The position numbers and the translations under genes were made by a program. Shown one piece after another: positions 19,155 through 59,202 of a stretch of 64,000 nt of DNA; position 1 is the first letter of the stretch, and each line of letters starts with the position of its first letter. Origin of the DNA: Octopus vulgaris (lineage: Eukaryota); NCBI GenBank assembly GCA_951406725.2, contig OX597833.1, positions 14,756,001 through 14,820,000 of the forward strand, given 5' to 3'. Under the pieces are notes generated by a model, which made no database searches, had not been told where the DNA came from, and saw only the letters and a list, made by a program, of their open reading frames with translations.

Positions 19155-19565
19155 CTTATTTCTTTACTACCCACAAGGGGCTAAACATAGAGAGGACAAA
19201 CAAGGACAGACAAACGGATTAAGTCGATTTTATCGACCCCAGTGCGTAACTGTTCCTTAATTTATCGACCCCGAAAGGATGAAAGGCAAAGTCGACCTCG
19301 GCGGAATTTGAACTCAGAATGTAACGGCAGGCGAAATACCTATTTCTTTACTATCCACAAGGGGCTAAACACAGAGAGGACAAACAAGGAAAGACAAACG
19401 GATTAAGTCGATTTTATCGACCCCAGTGCGTAACTGGTACTTATTTAATCGACCCCGAAAGGATGAAAGACAAAGTCGACCTCGGCGGAATTTGAACTCA
19501 GAATGTAACGGCAGGCGAAATACGGCTACGCATTTCGCCCGGCGTGCTAACGATTCTGCCAGCTC
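19155..19565 (-). mobile_element. SINE family C, tandem dimer (one head, two ~170-bp bodies)
   Basis: Two direct units joined at gcgaaatacc|tatttcttt (~19340). Confidence 0.9.
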
Positions 19566-30563: not shown

Positions 30564-30602
<39 letters not shown>

Positions 30603-30816
30603 GATGCATGATAAAACTTTTTCGGGAAAAATTTTTTTATCAATGGCCAGCATAACAAAAAATACCTTTAAAGTTTAAATTTATAAATAATTTACAAGAT
30701 AAGTGTAAAAGAAAAATTCTAATGCCATATATGCCGAAAAAAAGACAAAAATTGTCAATAACCATTATAATGTATGCGTCTCAAAACAAACCGATAGAAA
30801 TTTCTAAAAAATTCGT

Positions 30817-30882
30817 TATTACCGTATTGGTCCAATTTCGGGGTTAATTCATAAGAAATTTTCCCCTCTTCAGCGGCAAATA
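30817..30882 (-). ncRNA. Minimal type I hammerhead ribozyme
   Basis: Minus strand: tatttgccg-CTGAAGA-gggg-(19 nt)-cccc-GAAA-ttgg-a-ccaa-TA-cggtaata; full core and three helices. Confidence 0.85.
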
Positions 30883-31178
30883 CGCGAGATAAAAGTGAAA
30901 TTATTAATAAATTTAACCTTTAAAAGTATATTTTGATATGCTGGCCATTGATAAAATTTTTTTTCCCGAAAAAATTTTATCCTACATTTGTTATAAATTG
31001 AATAGTGTTCACTTCCGGATTCTCTCACTCTGTGCAAGTTTCTAGTTCGAATCACATGTGTCTCGAGATGTGCCGAAGATTTTTCTATTTTGGATATATT
31101 TGGGGTACTTAGGTCGGCTCAGGACTTGGTGCTTGCTTTTTCCATGGGTATGAGTAAGTATTTCACTTATATCTCGCG

Positions 31179-31244
31179 TATTTGCCGCTGACGAGGGGAA
31201 AATTTCTTATGAATTAACCCCGAAATTGGACCAATACGGTAATA
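31179..31244 (+). ncRNA. Minimal type I hammerhead ribozyme
   Basis: tatttgccg-CTGACGA-gggg-(19 nt)-cccc-GAAA-ttgg-a-ccaa-TA-cggtaata. Confidence 0.85.
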
Positions 31245-31365
31245 TCGATTTTTTTTAGAAACTTCTATCAGTTTGTGTCAAGACGCATAAATTATAATGG
31301 TTATTGACAATTTTTGTCTTTTTTTCGGTATAATTGGCATTAGAATTTCTCTTTTGCCCTTATCT

Positions 31366-31454
<89 letters not shown>

Positions 31455-31692: not shown

Positions 31693-31860
31693 GTTAAAAG
31701 GGCTGAATGCGAATTCTTGCTTTAATTGGAATATTTTCCTAAAGATTTCTAACGTTGATTCTTCATACTTTACTTTTAATTTTAATTTAGAGTAGATGTG
31801 AAATGTTATATAAGTATATGATTTAACTTATAAAACAAATGTTCTAGAAATTCAATCATA

Positions 31861-32420
31861 TTTTTCGTAAATGGAAGAGATTAGATTTTAATATAGATTG
31901 AAATTATTTTAATTCATGTAGCTATACGATCGTTTCGTACAGAAAGACAATAATTTCATATTTATAATTGTATTTACACATTTTTTTAAAACTAATATCT
32001 AAGCCGTATGGATTATTGACGGTTAAATATAAATTTTAGTACCCAGTATTTAAAATTTCGTACTCCTTTCTTTGGTTAGTTTTTTTCTGTTAAATACAAA
32101 CACCACCAGGTTTTTTACTTCATATATAGGAGTTTAAATTTTTACTCCTTTAAACTAATCTATAGAGAGAATGTAACCCTTATTTACTTTTTATATATAT
32201 CAACACCTTACTGAGACCCTTTAGCCTTGTTTTATTTAGACATGACTCTAAGAACAATTACACAATACAAACACCATACTAATGTCGTTTTAGCTTTTTT
32301 TTCTTTCCTGAATTTTTGCTGCTGAATTTATTGCCGTTCTGTACGAAACGATCGTATACCTAGGTGAATAAAAATGATTTCAACCCATATTAACATCTAA
32401 TCTCCTCCATTTTCGAAAAA
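31861..32420. repeat. Diverged ~100-bp inverted repeat pair (31861-31958 / 32323-32420)
   Basis: tatacgatcgtttcgtacagaa mirrored by ttctgtacgaaacgatcgtata; gagattagat / atctaatctc. Confidence 0.75.
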
Positions 32421-32495
32421 CGATTGTATTCGCTGAACTTTGTCTTATATGTTAAATAATACACTTAAAATAATATAATATGATATAATATATAC

Positions 32496-39399: not shown

Positions 39400-40075
39400 C
39401 CTGAAATAGTTCTCCATTTGAAGCAACGCATCGGTTCTCCACTATTCGAAGCAGTGCTGGGACTCTGGTGAAGTGACGCCTTTTAACGCCTTCATCGTTT
39501 TTTACTTGACCTCTTCCACATTTGCGAATTCCATAGTACCAGCTTTCGTCACCAGTGATGAACTTAGAAAAAGAGTCCGGGTCAAGATCGATCTCTTACG
39601 ACACCCATTTTGCCGTGACTGCTTTTGATCTTCCATGAAGAAACGAGGTACAAATTCTGCTGTAACTCTTTTCATACGCAATTTCTCGACAGAAATTCGT
39701 TAGCAGGAGCTCCAAACACAGTGGTTATAGCAAGAAGCTCGTTAATTGTTCGACGACGGTCTTCCACCATCAGTTCATGAACATTCATGATGTTTTCATT
39801 CGATCGAGAGGTCGACGGTCGTCCTCAACGAAGCTGGTCTTCAAGCGGCAAGTGACCATTCCTAATGCGTGAAAACCCACTCGCAAAATAGCTTTTTGCC
39901 TATAGCAGCGATCTTGTAAGCTATTTGAAGCATAACTTCTTTTTCGGCCAGCGTTTTCTCCAGCAGAAAACAGAATTTTACGAAACCACGCATTTCTTTC
40001 GTTTCAGCCATTGCAAAAATCGACGAACAAGGAAGAAGCACTGCAAAACAAAGATGCCTCAAGTAGTAGTACGAC
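39400..40075 (-). mobile_element. Decayed mariner, transposase N-terminal half
   Basis: MAETKEMRGFVKFCFLLEKT..EWVF, GRPSTSRSNENIMNVHELMVEDRRRTINEL. Confidence 0.85.
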
Positions 40076-40119
40076 TTCAATCGACCACACCGTTGAGCAG
40101 ACAGATGCTTGAAGGCAAT

Positions 40120-40525
40120 ACCTATTTCTTTATTGCCCACAAGGGGCTAAACATAGAGGGGACAAACAAGGACAGACAAACGGATTAAGTCGATTACATC
40201 GACTCCAGTTCGTAACTGGTACTTAATTTATCGACCCCGAAAGGATGAAAGGCAAAGTCGACCTCGGCAGAATTTGAACTCAGAACGTAGCGGCAGACGA
40301 AATACCTATTTCTTTATTGCCCACAAGGGGCTAAACACAGAGGGGGCAAACAAGGACAGACAAACGGATTAAGTCGATTACATCGACCCCAGTTCGTAAC
40401 TGGTACTTAATTTGTCGACCCCGAAAGGATGAAAGGCAAAGTCGACCTCGGCGGAATTTGAACTCAGAACGTAACGAAATATGGCTACGCATTTCGCCCG
40501 GCGTTCTAACAATTCTGGCAGCTCG
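40120..40525 (-). mobile_element. SINE family C, tandem dimer
   Basis: Two direct units joined at gacgaaatacc|tatttcttt (~40306). Confidence 0.9.
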
Positions 40526-49278: not shown

Positions 49279-49513
49279 TGACTATTGAATAATTGTAACA
49301 TATTATTTTATAGATAAATTTCCTCTATTTACATAATATTGAGGTCTCTTTCTTTCTTTTGTTATCTTACCGTTTTTACCAATATATATATATATTCACA
49401 CACACATACATATGTATGTATATGCAAGTATTTGCAGATTTGTATAGTTTATGTATGTATTCTCATACATACAGTTACATATCTAGACATGCTGATATAT
49501 TGGTAGAGGCCTT

Positions 49514-49569
49514 ATGTACCTAGAAAACTATCATAATAGTAGTAGTAATAATAATAATAATAATAATAA

Positions 49570-49632
<63 letters not shown>

Positions 49633-49649
49633 TAGTAATAATAATCATA

Positions 49650-49681
<32 letters not shown>

Positions 49682-49756
49682 AATAATTATAATAATAATA
49701 ATGATGATGATGATAATAATAATAATAAGAACAACAACAACAACAACAACAACAAC

Positions 49757-49811
<55 letters not shown>

Positions 49812-52240
49812 GGACCAGAGAGGACTATAGAGATGTGTTGAAAGCTTTTTATACAGCCCAACTAAACCCAAACAATAACCTCAGTGTACAAACATACATC
49901 TCATGGAGAAATTCAGTAGGCAATGACGTACGTAGATATATAGACGCAAATAAATTAAGTAATGTACGCAGAGATATAATTAAAAACAAAAGACTAACTG
50001 ACGCTGAAATTGACAAAATTAGGACACTAATAGCTCATGGTAGACCAAAAGAAAACAGCAACAATGTAGACGAAATAGGTAACAGTAGCACAGAAGCCAG
50101 TGTACAAGCGGCAAATCAACTTCCCAATGGGGAAGTTAAACAAAGAATAGCGAAGACGAGAGATTTGAAAAAAGAGGAGAACGTAGACCTTCCTCAAGAA
50201 AACCAAAATAGATATGACATAGAATTTGAGGTGAATAATAGAGAAAAGATTATGGAAGCAAAAGTGGACATTATGAGAGAACTCGGCAAGATTGAGCTCA
50301 CTGACATGGTTAATAGAGAACCACTACCAAAGTTTTCAAATGGCACAAGAAATGACAACACAATCATGACATATAACGTTGCCCTAGGACAGATCTTAAG
50401 AAATAAGGGGAATGATTTGACAACCTTAAATAATCTCATTTATTCAACTGCTAAAGTAGCAACTACCCAACTAGGTATTAAGATGACAAAGAAAAAGGCC
50501 AGGCATGTCAATGAACCTCCTAAGTGGAAAGTAGCGATACAAAAAGAGATTGAATCTCTGCGGGCGGCTGTTTCAGTTCTCGATGAGCTTGCTAGAGGAG
50601 TGAATATTAAGCCGAGAAAAGCTAGAAAAATCAAGCAAAAATATAAAATCAAAGATCTCATAAACCTCCCTGCAACTAAGGAACTGTTGAAACAACGGAT
50701 ACAGTTGAAAGCTCAACGGCTTAGAAGGTATGACAAAAGAAACAAATTTTATCGACAAAATAAATTTTTTAAGACAGATGCAAATAAATTTTATAGGGAA
50801 ATTGGCAAAAATAAAATACACATAGAAGATCCACCTAAGATTGAGGAAGTGGAGGAGTTCTGGAAGAAGGTATGGATCAACGAAAAAGAGTTTAATGCTG
50901 AGGCTGACTGGATAGAACGTGAGAAAGAGAGACTGGATGAACTTGAAGAACAGAAATGGGAAGCAATAGGAATAGAGGAGCTAACGTGTGTCCTTAGGAA
51001 GGCTCATAAATGGAAAACCCCAGGACTGGATCGGATCCCTAACTTCTGGCTGAATTGTTTGACAGAGGTACACGAACATCTCGCTGCATCTCTGTCTGAT
51101 GTCATTCAGAACCCAGAGCAAATACCTGCTTGGCTGACTGAAGGAACCACCTACCTATTACCTAAAACCGAAGACACAAAAAACCCAAAGAATTACCGGC
51201 CAATAACATGTCTCAACACCACCTACAAAATCCTCACATCCATAATAACGGAGAGAATGTACGCTTTCCTTGAACAAAATTCTATCCTTCCACAAGCTCA
51301 AAAAGGTTGTAAAAGAAACTCTTATGGGTGCAAAGACCAATTGCTCATAAACAGAATGATTGTAGAGAATTGCCGGAGCAAAAACAAAAACCTGAGTATG
51401 GCATGGATAGACTACAGGAAAGCGTATGACAGTGTCCCACATAAATGGATACTCAAGGCCCTTGAGATATACAAGATCTCTCCTGTCGTCTCAAAATTCT
51501 TAGAGAATAGCATGACCATGTGGAACACACGTCTCTTTCTAAGCCATAGTAATGGGATGAGCCAGTCCAATAGCATCAACATCAAACGAGGCATCTTTCA
51601 AGGTGACTCCCTCTCTCCATTACTTTTTTGCATGACACTGATCCCACTCTCAAACGAATTGGATAGTACCAGATATGGGTACAAAGTTTTTAGTAAGTTA
51701 ATAAACCACCTTTTCTATATGGACGACCTAAAGCTGTTTGCCAGGAATGACCAAGAGCTAGAAGGGCTGCTAACAACTGTTAAAGAGTTTAGCAATGATA
51801 TCGGGATGGATTTTGGCCTTGATAAGTGTGCTAAAGCAACTTTTGTAAGAGGCAAGCTCAGGCAAACAGCTTCTGTTAAATTAGATATTGACACTACCAT
51901 CAAGGAACTTGACCCACAAGAAAGTTACAAATACCTAGGAATCAACGAAGGAGATGGTATACATCATGCTACTATGAAGGAAAAGATAAGAAAGGAATAT
52001 TATAGGAGAATAAGGCTTGTACTGAAGACTGAACTCAACTCCAAAAATTGCATTGAGGCCATTAACACCCTGGCACTTCCAGTAGTCCAGTACAGTTTTA
52101 ACATCATTAACTGGAACCTTACGGAACTCCAACGCTTGGACAGGAAGACAAGAAAGTTACTGACATCCAAGAGCATGCACCACCCTAAGGCAGATGTAGA
52201 CCGCTTGTACCTACCTAGAAGCAGCGGGGGAGAGGAATGA
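49514..52240 (+). CDS. Retrotransposon polyprotein part 1: N-terminal region + reverse transcriptase (first ~98 codons are microsatellite)
   Basis: KWTREDY, WKTPGLD, NYRPITCL, WIDYRKAYDSVPH, GIFQGDSLSPLLF, HLFYMDDLKLFA, YKYLG. Confidence 0.9.
49533..49808. repeat. (TAA)n/(GAT)n/(CAA)n compound microsatellite, target of the Dong/R4 element
   Basis: Direct reading. Confidence 0.95.
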
Positions 52241-52626
52241 TGCAATTAGAGCTGTGCTATAAGACCTCTACTGTAGGAATGAACAGGTACCTATCTAGTA
52301 CAAAGGACTGGATGCTGCGACTTGTGTGCGAACACGAAAGCAGCAAAATGCTGCATTCTATTGTCAAGGAAGCTTATAAGTTCGAAAGGGAACTAGACGT
52401 TAACCTTGAATCAGATGAAGAGTCGGAAACCACTGCTACCAAGCAAGCAAAGCGAATCAAGCAGACTGCAAAAAAGAACGGGCAGAATCAAATTGAGAGG
52501 CGGTGGAGCCAGAAGCCCCTGCATGGACAATATATTCTCCGAAGCCAAAACGCTGATGTAGACCAAGCAACAACCCATCAGTGGCTGAAGAGCTCTGGAT
52601 TGAAAAAGAGACTGAAGGCTTCATAA
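52237..52626 (+). CDS. Polyprotein part 2 (linker), separated by frameshifts
   Basis: Continues RLYLPRSSGG/RGMMQLE; contains WSQKPLHGQY and WLKSSGLK. Confidence 0.8.
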   Translation: MMQLELCYKTSTVGMNRYLSSTKDWMLRLVCEHESSKMLHSIVKEAYKFERELDVNLESDEESETTATKQAKRIKQTAKKNGQNQIERRWSQKPLHGQYILRSQNADVDQATTHQWLKSSGLKKRLKAS

Positions 52627-53267
52627 TGGCAGCACAAGATCAAAGCTTGTTTACCAGAAATTACCAGGCTAACGTTCTCCGAAACGGTACTGACCCTAAA
52701 TGCAGATTCTGTGACACATTTGACGAAACAATAGACCATCTCGTTTCGGGATGTCCTGTGCTGACACCAAACGAATACAAAAATCGCCACGATAGGGTAA
52801 GACAGTATATACATTGGAAGATATGTAAACACTACAAATCCGACACTCCTGCTAACTGGTATGAACACCATCCTCAGCCAGTTGTTGAAGGTAAAGATGT
52901 CACCATCCTCTGGGATTTTCCAGTCAACACTGACAGAACGATCAAGGCTAATCGACCAGACATAATTGTGAAAGACAGGGAAGAAAATACCTGCAGACTA
53001 ATAGAAGTAAGCGTCCCCACTGATAAAAATGTATCTGTCAAGGAATTTGACAAACTTAGTAAATATAAGGACCTGGAAATCGAAATACAGAGGATGTGGA
53101 ATCTTAAAACAAAAACTGTTCCTGTTATTGTAGGTGCCCTAGGTATGATAAAAAAGGGATGTCAGAAACACCTAGACAATATCCCTGGAAAACCATGTCT
53201 CAAGGAAATCCAAAAGATTGTGCTAACAAGTACTGCCCACATCCTTAGAAAAACCCTATCAATGTAA
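52581..53267 (+). CDS. Polyprotein part 3: CCHC zinc knuckle + PD-(D/E)xK restriction-like endonuclease
   Basis: ETEGFIMAAQDQ, CRFCDTFDETIDHLVSGC, RHD, RPDIIVKD..IEVSVP, KLSKYKDL, PVIVGALG. Confidence 0.9.
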   Translation: MAEELWIEKETEGFIMAAQDQSLFTRNYQANVLRNGTDPKCRFCDTFDETIDHLVSGCPVLTPNEYKNRHDRVRQYIHWKICKHYKSDTPANWYEHHPQPVVEGKDVTILWDFPVNTDRTIKANRPDIIVKDREENTCRLIEVSVPTDKNVSVKEFDKLSKYKDLEIEIQRMWNLKTKTVPVIVGALGMIKKGCQKHLDNIPGKPCLKEIQKIVLTSTAHILRKTLSM

Positions 53268-53579
53268 ATGTTTGTGTTTGCATTACATGGAGATATATCT
53301 CTACTTCCCCTCCCCAAGCTTTCAGCTATATTTCAACAACTCTTAACCTTCACTTGCCCTAGGGCGCTGGGTGTGCTCCGGCAAGTGATTGCATCAAACA
53401 TGCAGATTAAAAGTAAATGACAATAATAATAATAATAATAATAATAATTTTGCCACAATTTTGAGAGAAGGAATAAGTTGATTTCATCTATCCCAGTGTT
53501 TCACTAATACTTAATTTATCGGCCCCGAAAGTATAAAAGCCAAAGTTGATATACCGCTAAGGATTTCCCCCGGCCTTGC

Positions 53580-57300: not shown

Positions 57301-58012
57301 CAGGGAGGCCTGGCCAATTCTAATTATATGCGTGCCACTTCAATCGCAGAAAGTCTTTTGAGGGCCGCTTGTGTACTGACAGAATTGAAAGTATTTTGAT
57401 TTCTAATGCTATTATTACAGTAAGGAATCAATGATCGTTGATTCAGCATGAAATATCATCATCATAAAGCGGCAAGCTGGCAGAATCTGAGTTCCAATTC
57501 CGCCGAGGTCGACTTTGCCTTCCATCCTTTCGGAGTCGATAAATTAAGTACCAGTTTCACACTGGGGTCGATATAATCGACTTAATCCGTTTATCTGTCC
57601 TTGTTTGTCCCCTCTGTGTGTAGCCCCTTGTGGGTAGTAAAGAAATAGGTATTTCGTCTGTCTTTGTGTTCTGAGTTCAAGTTCCGCCAAGGTCGACTTT
57701 GCCTTTCATCCTTTCGCGGTCGATAAGTTAAGTACTAGTTTCGTACTGGGGTCGACCTAATCGATTGGCCCCCTTTCCCCAAAATGTCGGGACTTGTGCC
57801 GAGAGTAGAAAAGAATATAAAATATCATCGTTGAAAAAACAGTAGTATCTTTTTTTTTTTTGGACTTTTCATTACAACCTCTAATTTTTGATAAAATGTT
57901 TTAAATGTTTGCTTAAATAAACCCATTTCAAGAAAGTTTCAAGCGGGCCGCAAGATGAAAGTCTGAGGGCCGCCAGATGAAGTTTTGACTGGCATCAGGT
58001 TGGCCAGCCCTG
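57301..58012. mobile_element. hAT-like MITE with nested SINE C units (57468-57815, plus)
   Basis: Ends caggg..ctggccaa and ttggccagccctg, subterminal gggccgc repeats; no TSD recognised. Confidence 0.6.
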
Positions 58013-58869: not shown

Positions 58870-59136
58870 TATATTTGGATATTTGGGGTACTTAGGTCTG
58901 CTCACGACTTAGTGCTTGCTTTTTCCATGGGTATGAGTATTTCACTTATATCTCACGTATTTATCGCTGAAGAGGGGAAAATTCTTATGAATTAACCTCG
59001 AAATTGGGACCAATACGGTAATAACGGATTTTTTAGAAATTTCTATCGGTTTGTTTCGAGACGCATAAATTATAATGGTTATTGACAATTTTGTCTTTTT
59101 TTCGGCATATTTGGCATTAGAATTTTTCTTTTGCCC

Positions 59137-59138
<2 letters not shown>
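58870..59138 (+). mobile_element. Family P2 element, solo unit between (TA)n tracts
   Basis: Close copy of 31095-31365. Confidence 0.85.
58958..59023 (+). ncRNA. Minimal type I hammerhead ribozyme
   Basis: tatttatcg-CTGAAGA-gggg-..-cctc-GAAA-ttgg-ga-ccaa-TA-cggtaata; changes versus 31179 keep pairing. Confidence 0.8.

Positions 59139-59202
<64 letters not shown>

Follow-up and report, generated by a model that had tools for sequence, protein, structure and literature searches.

A non-coding 471-nt hammerhead repeat in Octopus vulgaris, probably a retrozyme moved by a Penelope-type enzyme

Structure of the locus

The window, a 64,000-nt stretch of Octopus vulgaris DNA (GenBank assembly GCA_951406725.2, contig OX597833.1, positions 14,756,001 to 14,820,000), contains two (TA)n target microsatellites at 30567-30599 and 31368-31422, which enclose one full 471-nt monomer on the plus strand (30898-31368; 33% G+C) and an inverted arm on the minus strand (30604-30901). 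The monomer is composed of three segments in the order B-X-A, with B starting at 30898, X in the middle and A at 31160-31368. On the minus strand, a 5′-truncated copy of segment A is read from 30901 down to 30694 (192/209 identity), followed by a tail that consists of about the first 90 nt of the next unit, i.e. the start of segment B (30693 to 30604; 79/90 identity to 30898-30987), and then by (TA)n, with the tail stopping a few bases short of the left array. The fusion of the end of A to the start of B was thus read directly inside the minus arm, and the plus unit therefore represents exactly one turn of the 471-nt repeat. Plus unit and minus arm meet at a 4-nt overlap (30898-30901), and the plus unit ends at the right (TA)n without a tail.

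An initial annotation of this DNA had described an ORF-less, (TA)n-bounded element with two back-to-back hammerheads. The (TA)n boundaries were recovered on both sides, and the lack of coding capacity held as well: in the doubled unit, no ATG-started frame on either strand exceeded 36 codons, the length of the longest one. Two hammerheads per element were not borne out, since each 471-nt unit carries one, and the locus consists of a single-hammerhead unit plus an inverted, 5′-truncated second copy. Nor do the two ribozymes form a designed pair; opposite-strand hammerheads 100-700 bp apart are already described in PMC4209133. The annotation's second inverted pair is real (30604-30693 with 30898-30987, 79/90 identical) and is explained by the minus arm running about 90 nt into the next unit; its overlap with the first pair (30694-30901 / 31160-31368) exists but amounts to just 4 nt.

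A third copy, absent from the initial annotation, was located at 58874-59139 (+). It is 5′-truncated, retains A together with part of X (89.5% identity over 277 nt), is flanked by TA runs on both sides, lacks a tail and ends within a few bases of the end point of the plus unit. Divergence among the three A segments is roughly even, at 12 to 16 mismatches per ~200 nt. Both insertions in the window lie in (TA)n, in a window that is itself rich in such runs. A tail, about 90 nt long, is present at one of the three ends, and the 3′ ends accordingly fall into two kinds that lie about 90 nt from each other.

Two further features were noted within the unit. A near-palindromic hairpin, recognized by self-match and circular folding, lies just 5′ of the tail end point (30950-30981). 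By sequence inspection, an ATG followed by a splice-donor-like GTAAGT was found at 31144-31159 (+), 23 nt 5′ of the hammerhead; it is possibly a relic of a pLTR intron. No splice joint from the donor-like site (31154-31159) was among the 12 joints listed in the comparison with sequencing runs given below. A pyrimidine tract with AG is located at about 31010-31040, and 4 nt of the donor-like site are missing from the third copy.

Hammerhead motifs

A descriptor scan of both strands of the 64-kb window returned three matches, each a complete type I hammerhead core and each belonging to a copy of the 471-nt family: copy R at 31182-31242 (+; scan, fold and alignment), copy L at 30819-30879 (−; scan and alignment) and copy T at 58961-59021 (+; also aligned). 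Position C3 corresponds to 31188 (+), 30873 (−) and 58967 (+), respectively, and A17 to 31236 on the plus and 30825 on the minus strand; cleavage is predicted after A31236 in R and after A30825 in L. In 30 first-order Markov control windows, scanned on both strands, 0.03 loose and 0 strong hammerhead matches per window were obtained.

Copies R and L share stem I (TTGCCG/CGGTAA, 6 bp), a CUGANGA core, a 4-bp helix II (GGGG/CCCC) capped by a 19-nt loop, GAA-A, a self-complementary helix III (ATTGG-A-CCAAT) and U16.1-A17 with an AUA site. The two complete cores with AUA site of the initial annotation were thereby confirmed, as was their divergence at N7 (31192), which is the only difference across the 61-nt motif. 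All three copies combine CUGANGA, GAAA, UH and helices I to III, with helix I open. Copy T deviates from R at six positions, all compatible with the fold: helix I has two pair-keeping changes, helix II and N7 have one change each, loop II is shorter by one base and loop III longer by one base (GA). Four of these changes (31184, 31185, 31203, 31227) were found again in all four sequencing runs compared below.

A search with the Rfam hammerhead models, proposed in the initial annotation as an Infernal check, gave no match at E ≤ 5 on 6 kb and no hammerhead family at E ≤ 10 on 151 nt, which says only that the motifs are distant from the curated models. Hammerhead pattern scans of viral contigs and metagenome contigs yielded 0 matches.

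According to Cervera and De la Pena 2014 (PMC4209133), canonical metazoan hammerheads have a helix I of 6 bp, a helix II of 4 bp, a helix III of 1-2 bp and a palindromic loop; minimal PLE (Penelope-like element) motifs lack helix III, combine a short helix I with a longer helix II, and carry one additional base behind position 9. The octopus motif had been called minimal; its helices I (6 bp) and II (4 bp) have the canonical sizes, and no base needs to be added between positions 9 and 10.1. Assignment to the minimal PLE hammerheads was rejected on the helix lengths (I, 6 bp; II, 4 bp; III, 4-5 bp).

That the hammerhead is a dead relic, in a repeat that spreads without any RNA step, simply as satellite or fold-back DNA, is hardly credible. 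The core is free of variants among the 40 of 71 variant rows listed, but this taken alone is not significant (about 0.3 by chance, as an estimate), and to that extent a relic would fit. However, R and L differ at 1/61 positions inside the hammerhead compared with 16/140 outside, all six changes of copy T fit the fold, and retrotransposition is indicated by fixed 3′ ends combined with 5′ truncation and by the dispersed insertion into (TA)n.

Predicted folding of monomer, dimer and read-through transcript

The initial annotation held that helix III, with its 1-nt loop, cannot close as a monomer. On folding, it closed as 4 bp with a GAC triloop, longer than the 2 bp given as typical for hammerheads of invertebrates, the majority of which, as single motifs, cleave efficiently (PMC7229834). 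The active monomer fold nevertheless made up a minor share of the ensemble (R, 0.6%; L, 3.9%; T, 0.09%), and unconstrained single-strand folding of the 76-nt motifs did not yield the hammerhead and gave energies no better than those of shuffled sequences (z −0.69 and −1.46). The dimer proposed in the same annotation fared better: the unconstrained dimer minimum was the double hammerhead for R and L, two of the three copies, and in T differed from it by no more than 0.2 kcal/mol.

In a head-to-tail dimer, the double hammerhead was 3.9 kcal/mol better than two monomer folds; in tandem context, it was still 5.6 kcal/mol above the free ensemble. The energy gain on dimerisation was not special, as 118, 39 and 153 of 200 shuffles gained as much. 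With a minor monomer fold, a double-hammerhead dimer minimum and an ordinary gain, dimer cleavage is, according to these models, likely favoured over monomer cleavage and not necessarily obligatory. Dimer cleavage is reportedly the topic of Lunse et al. 2017. Among nine retrozyme dimers tested in a recent preprint, one cleaved and eight did not (bioRxiv 10.64898/2026.07.22.740005).

Each strand's transcript had been expected to carry one ribozyme. In the modelled plus transcript of the whole locus, the hammerhead lies inside a long hairpin, and forcing it to form costs 94 kcal/mol. A read-through transcript is thus predicted to mask the ribozyme in a 200-bp hairpin, and the minus transcript, by symmetry, would likewise make the antisense arm first. 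With the antisense arm made first and the motif buried, the back-to-back pair is predicted to be self-silencing, and the expectation of one available ribozyme per strand was not upheld.

Occurrence in sequencing runs

In a run search, 20 of the 24 listed runs, from 10 studies and under four organism labels, contained part of the stretch, and none contained half of it or more; no listed run is recorded as RNA. The monomer was compared with the contigs of four runs at 82% likeness, a level at which joints are less reliable. These were X1 (organism A, which may be the source sample), X3 (organism B), X11 and X19; the latter two were taken as RNA by guess, so nothing is claimed about expression. 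Summed contig depth was not equated with copy number.

Contigs matching the unit numbered 2090 in X1, 3363 in X3, 241 in X11 and 53 in X19, covering 30/30, 30/30, 30/30 and 29/30 bins of the unit, and the 90-95% likeness class was the largest in each run. The share of contigs continuing into unlike sequence was 0 in X1, 0 in X3, 0.01 in X11 and 0.53 in X19, the run with the fewest contigs, where the run-on examples among those listed, a listing that leaves out 344 loose ends, look like diverged relatives.

The head-to-tail joint from 31368/31367 to 30898 was carried by 7 + 2 contigs of X3 and by 1 contig of X11; there were additional joint rows for X3 and a single one for X19. In all four runs, the loose ends ahead of 30904-30909 read like the end of A. 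Head-to-tail arrangement was hence found both at the junction in the window and at junctions within or at the ends of contigs of the four runs. Arrays of at least two full units were not found in the window, and no listed contig piece spans the whole unit, so the head-to-tail junctions could stem from partial tandems only. Segment B is bridged to X by contigs of X1, X3 and X11, and the distance from hammerhead to hammerhead is therefore too short for an ORF. Of the 12 joints listed, six change strand (at six different place pairs), four are internal skips and two lead back by one unit; inverted 5′-truncated copies are accordingly represented by 30604-30901 in the window and by six other opposite-strand joints. 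Loose ends at about 30963-30995 enter TA-rich letters, like the tail in the window. The 471-nt unit is a family of many variants, occurring under at least two organism labels, arranged head to tail and inverted at differing points.

Behind 31174, a sister sequence departs in all four runs, with a common upstream region and a different start of the hammerhead. In the ~30 letters visible, its core is CUGA-C-GA, and in three of the four runs one more A stands directly behind it. Judged from these letters, it is possibly the parent or a sister family of the 471-nt unit.

The copies could alternatively be 5′-truncated ends, each a long pseudo-LTR plus tail, of an abundant autonomous PLE, in which case the short unit would not propagate itself. 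For most PLE families, truncated ends are reported to be commoner than full copies (PMC8557442, PMC4209133); 30962-31025, where an ORF would be lost or joined, is among the interior bins with the lowest coverage; and the CUGA-C-GA core with extra A (three of four runs) of the sister sequence behind 31174, seen in four runs, is a mark of the minimal PLE hammerhead. A model with only such a parent predicts that B leads into an ORF, whereas in contigs of three runs B continues into X and then into the hammerhead; moreover, the share of contigs continuing into unlike sequence amounts to 0 in X1 and X3, the two DNA runs, and each bin of the unit has many contigs over it. We consider this explanation unlikely.

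Other elements in the window

A non-LTR retrotransposon with an RVT_1 domain in three broken frames lies at 49496-53450, between (ATA)n and (AAT)n arrays; its reverse transcriptase is 73% identical, over residues 300-800, to a Penaeus japonicus protein, the best named match. By its motifs, it is probably of the R4/Dong type. As a partner of the 471-nt unit it was rejected, its 3′ end not being shared and its repeat being a different one.

Its presence in the window bears on a further alternative, a circle-forming retrozyme with a monomer-active hammerhead that is moved by another retrotransposon, such as this RT-bearing element in its (ATA)n/(AAT)n array, with the inversion arising by twin priming. 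Canonical sizes of helices I and II and a closable 4-bp helix III would suit such an element, and mussel and coral retrozyme monomers cleave (PMC7229834); yet the monomer fold is a minor species here, and the optional tail is described as PLE-specific (PMC11167929). The unit and the 49.5-53.4 kb element have no 3′ end in common, the target repeat differs from (TA)n, and the sole match between them comprises 25 nt of the hairpin (offset 1345-1369 of 49400-53500, E 0.009) and lies inside the ORF. Movement in this manner appears improbable.

No autonomous partner was found: four selected frames of the window, compared with Pfam, gave only the RVT_1 of this other retrotransposon class.

Several other repeats were recorded. 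An inverted repeat at 31811-32467, 450 nt away from the locus, has 148-nt arms of 82% identity and lies between (TA)n and (TATG)n; a relaxed scan detected no hammerhead core in it and it has no match to the 471-nt unit; it may be a MITE or a PLE-type inversion of another family. A SINE-like repeat consisting of a two-copy 184-nt tandem occurs at 19157-19523, 40117-40473 and about 57490-57760, and is presumably typical of octopus genomes. A short frame at 39460-39595 (−) had no Pfam match; by its motif, it resembles a piece of a mariner transposase.

Comparison with known elements

Non-LTR retrozymes are described as tandemly repeated units, 150-450 bp long and low in G+C, that bear a type I hammerhead; their circles were demonstrated in coral, mussel and axolotl, and PLEs were named as their likely mover (Cervera and de la Pena 2020, PMC7229834). 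Retrozymes were also treated as non-autonomous PLE derivatives, linked to pLTRs by co-occurrence and trees, in a preprint that covers mainly vertebrates and itself states that its life-cycle evidence is limited (Li, Clavereau and Pollet 2026, bioRxiv 10.64898/2026.07.22.740005). As described by Craig et al. 2021 (PMC8557442), PLE insertions are 5′-truncated, and many are preceded at the 5′ end by an inverted truncated copy and have a tail of 30-40 bp on one side; their target bias is to (TA)n in Naiads and to microsatellites in Neptune. A PLE protein acts on both strands of AT-rich DNA, cutting and extending each; its main template is uncut RNA, on which reverse transcription starts at two internal sites, the interval between them forming the tail (Frangieh et al. 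2024, PMC11167929).

The octopus unit has the structure of a retrozyme, being short (471 nt), non-coding and low in G+C (33%) with one type I hammerhead. Like animal non-LTR retrozymes, it has a G+C content under 45%, many copies, canonical helices I and II, head-to-tail junctions and a proposed PLE partner. Its length slightly exceeds the 150-450 bp of PMC7229834 and falls inside the 51-972 bp given in the bioRxiv preprint. Helix III comprises 5 bp with a loop of 1-2 nt, compared with 1-2 bp and 2-4 nt in retrozymes, and the octopus unit is known from head-to-tail junctions rather than from full arrays or RNA circles. The main text of PMC7229834 is silent on inverted arms, a tail and microsatellite targeting (0 occurrences each of "inverted" and "microsatellite"), and the part of the bioRxiv preprint that was covered draws on none of these three for evidence.

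With the insertions of endonuclease-bearing PLEs, as described in PMC4209133, PMC8557442 and PMC11167929, the locus shares 5′ truncation, an inverted truncated copy on the 5′ side and an optional tail at one end; further features in common with PLEs that have pLTR hammerheads are the microsatellite or AT-rich target, opposite-strand hammerheads 100-700 bp apart, the palindromic helix III and a donor-like site beside the hammerhead. It differs from PLE insertions in lacking an ORF between successive hammerheads (the unit encodes neither a telomerase-like RT nor a GIY-YIG endonuclease, having no ORF at all), in a hammerhead that is not of the minimal type, and in a tail of ~90 nt instead of the published 30-40 bp. 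The Chlamys elements of green algae, e.g. MRC1, are likewise non-autonomous, pLTR-forming PLE derivatives with head-to-tail insertions; unlike the octopus unit, most of them lack hammerheads (PMC8557442, compared by description only).

Proposed mechanism

An abundant, non-coding unit with a single hammerhead, head-to-tail junctions, a TA target and a flipped front end makes a new Penelope-moved retrozyme likely. With a probability of roughly 70%, the locus is one insertion of an abundant non-coding 471-nt single-hammerhead repeat, a non-autonomous PLE (non-LTR retrozyme) that would rely for its copying on a Penelope-type enzyme encoded at another place in the genome. The link of a non-autonomous, retrozyme-like family to Penelope-like elements, put forward in the initial annotation, gains support from the unit, inverted arm, tail and truncation, and its proposal of TA microsatellite targeting agrees with both insertions in the window and with the TA-like loose ends at about 30963-30995.

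Head-to-tail copies would be transcribed as multimeric RNA, in which neighbouring hammerheads would pair via the self-complementary helix III and release 471-nt monomers, which may become circularised. A Penelope-type RT/GIY-YIG protein would nick both strands of a TA microsatellite, and reverse transcription would begin within a circle or an uncut multimer; since the hammerhead and the sequence downstream of it are intact in both arms, the template should have been uncut or re-ligated. Two start sites would be available, one at the unit end and one about 90 nt further on. The first likely corresponds to the right (TA)n boundary (31368-31422); the tail end likely marks the second, by analogy with PMC11167929, and the 30950-30981 hairpin is a candidate signal for it. 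From one primed strand, a full unit without tail would be produced; from the other, the tail and segment A, followed by a stop, and the two copied strands would then be joined at the 4-nt overlap. Such two-strand priming would generate the inverted structure, making the second hammerhead a by-product of integration.

A more specific version is offered tentatively, at somewhat less than even odds: a retrozyme with the whole Penelope integration signature, i.e. two RT start sites ~90 nt apart, new inverted arms and TA targeting, in which the long palindromic helix III would act as a switch, cutting in multimers and closed in the monomer or circle.

Conclusions

As far as its sequence allows one to judge, the element behaves like a non-autonomous PLE and has the structural hallmarks of a retrozyme. 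The element class, back-to-back hammerheads and the dimer idea are already in print; less usual is that a non-coding unit bears PLE insertion marks, together with a tail of 90 nt and a long palindromic helix III. In a literature search, neither the 471-nt family nor a cephalopod retrozyme was found described, several supplements that might list the family lying outside that search, and the words "ribozyme" and "retrozyme" are absent from the main text of the 2026 Octopus vulgaris repeat paper.

Mobilisation of animal retrozymes by PLEs has so far been argued from co-occurrence and pLTR trees. The value of the octopus locus lies in evidence at the level of a single insertion for Penelope machinery moving a retrozyme, on a unit too short to code, and the unit is a small candidate substrate for studies on PLE start-site choice and on the role of the hammerhead. 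If the switch reading is true, the locus would be direct proof, at the level of an insertion, of the enzyme by which retrozymes are moved, the unit would serve as a minimal cis-substrate of 471 nt in Penelope transposition, and the sister family with its PLE-type core may be the parent.
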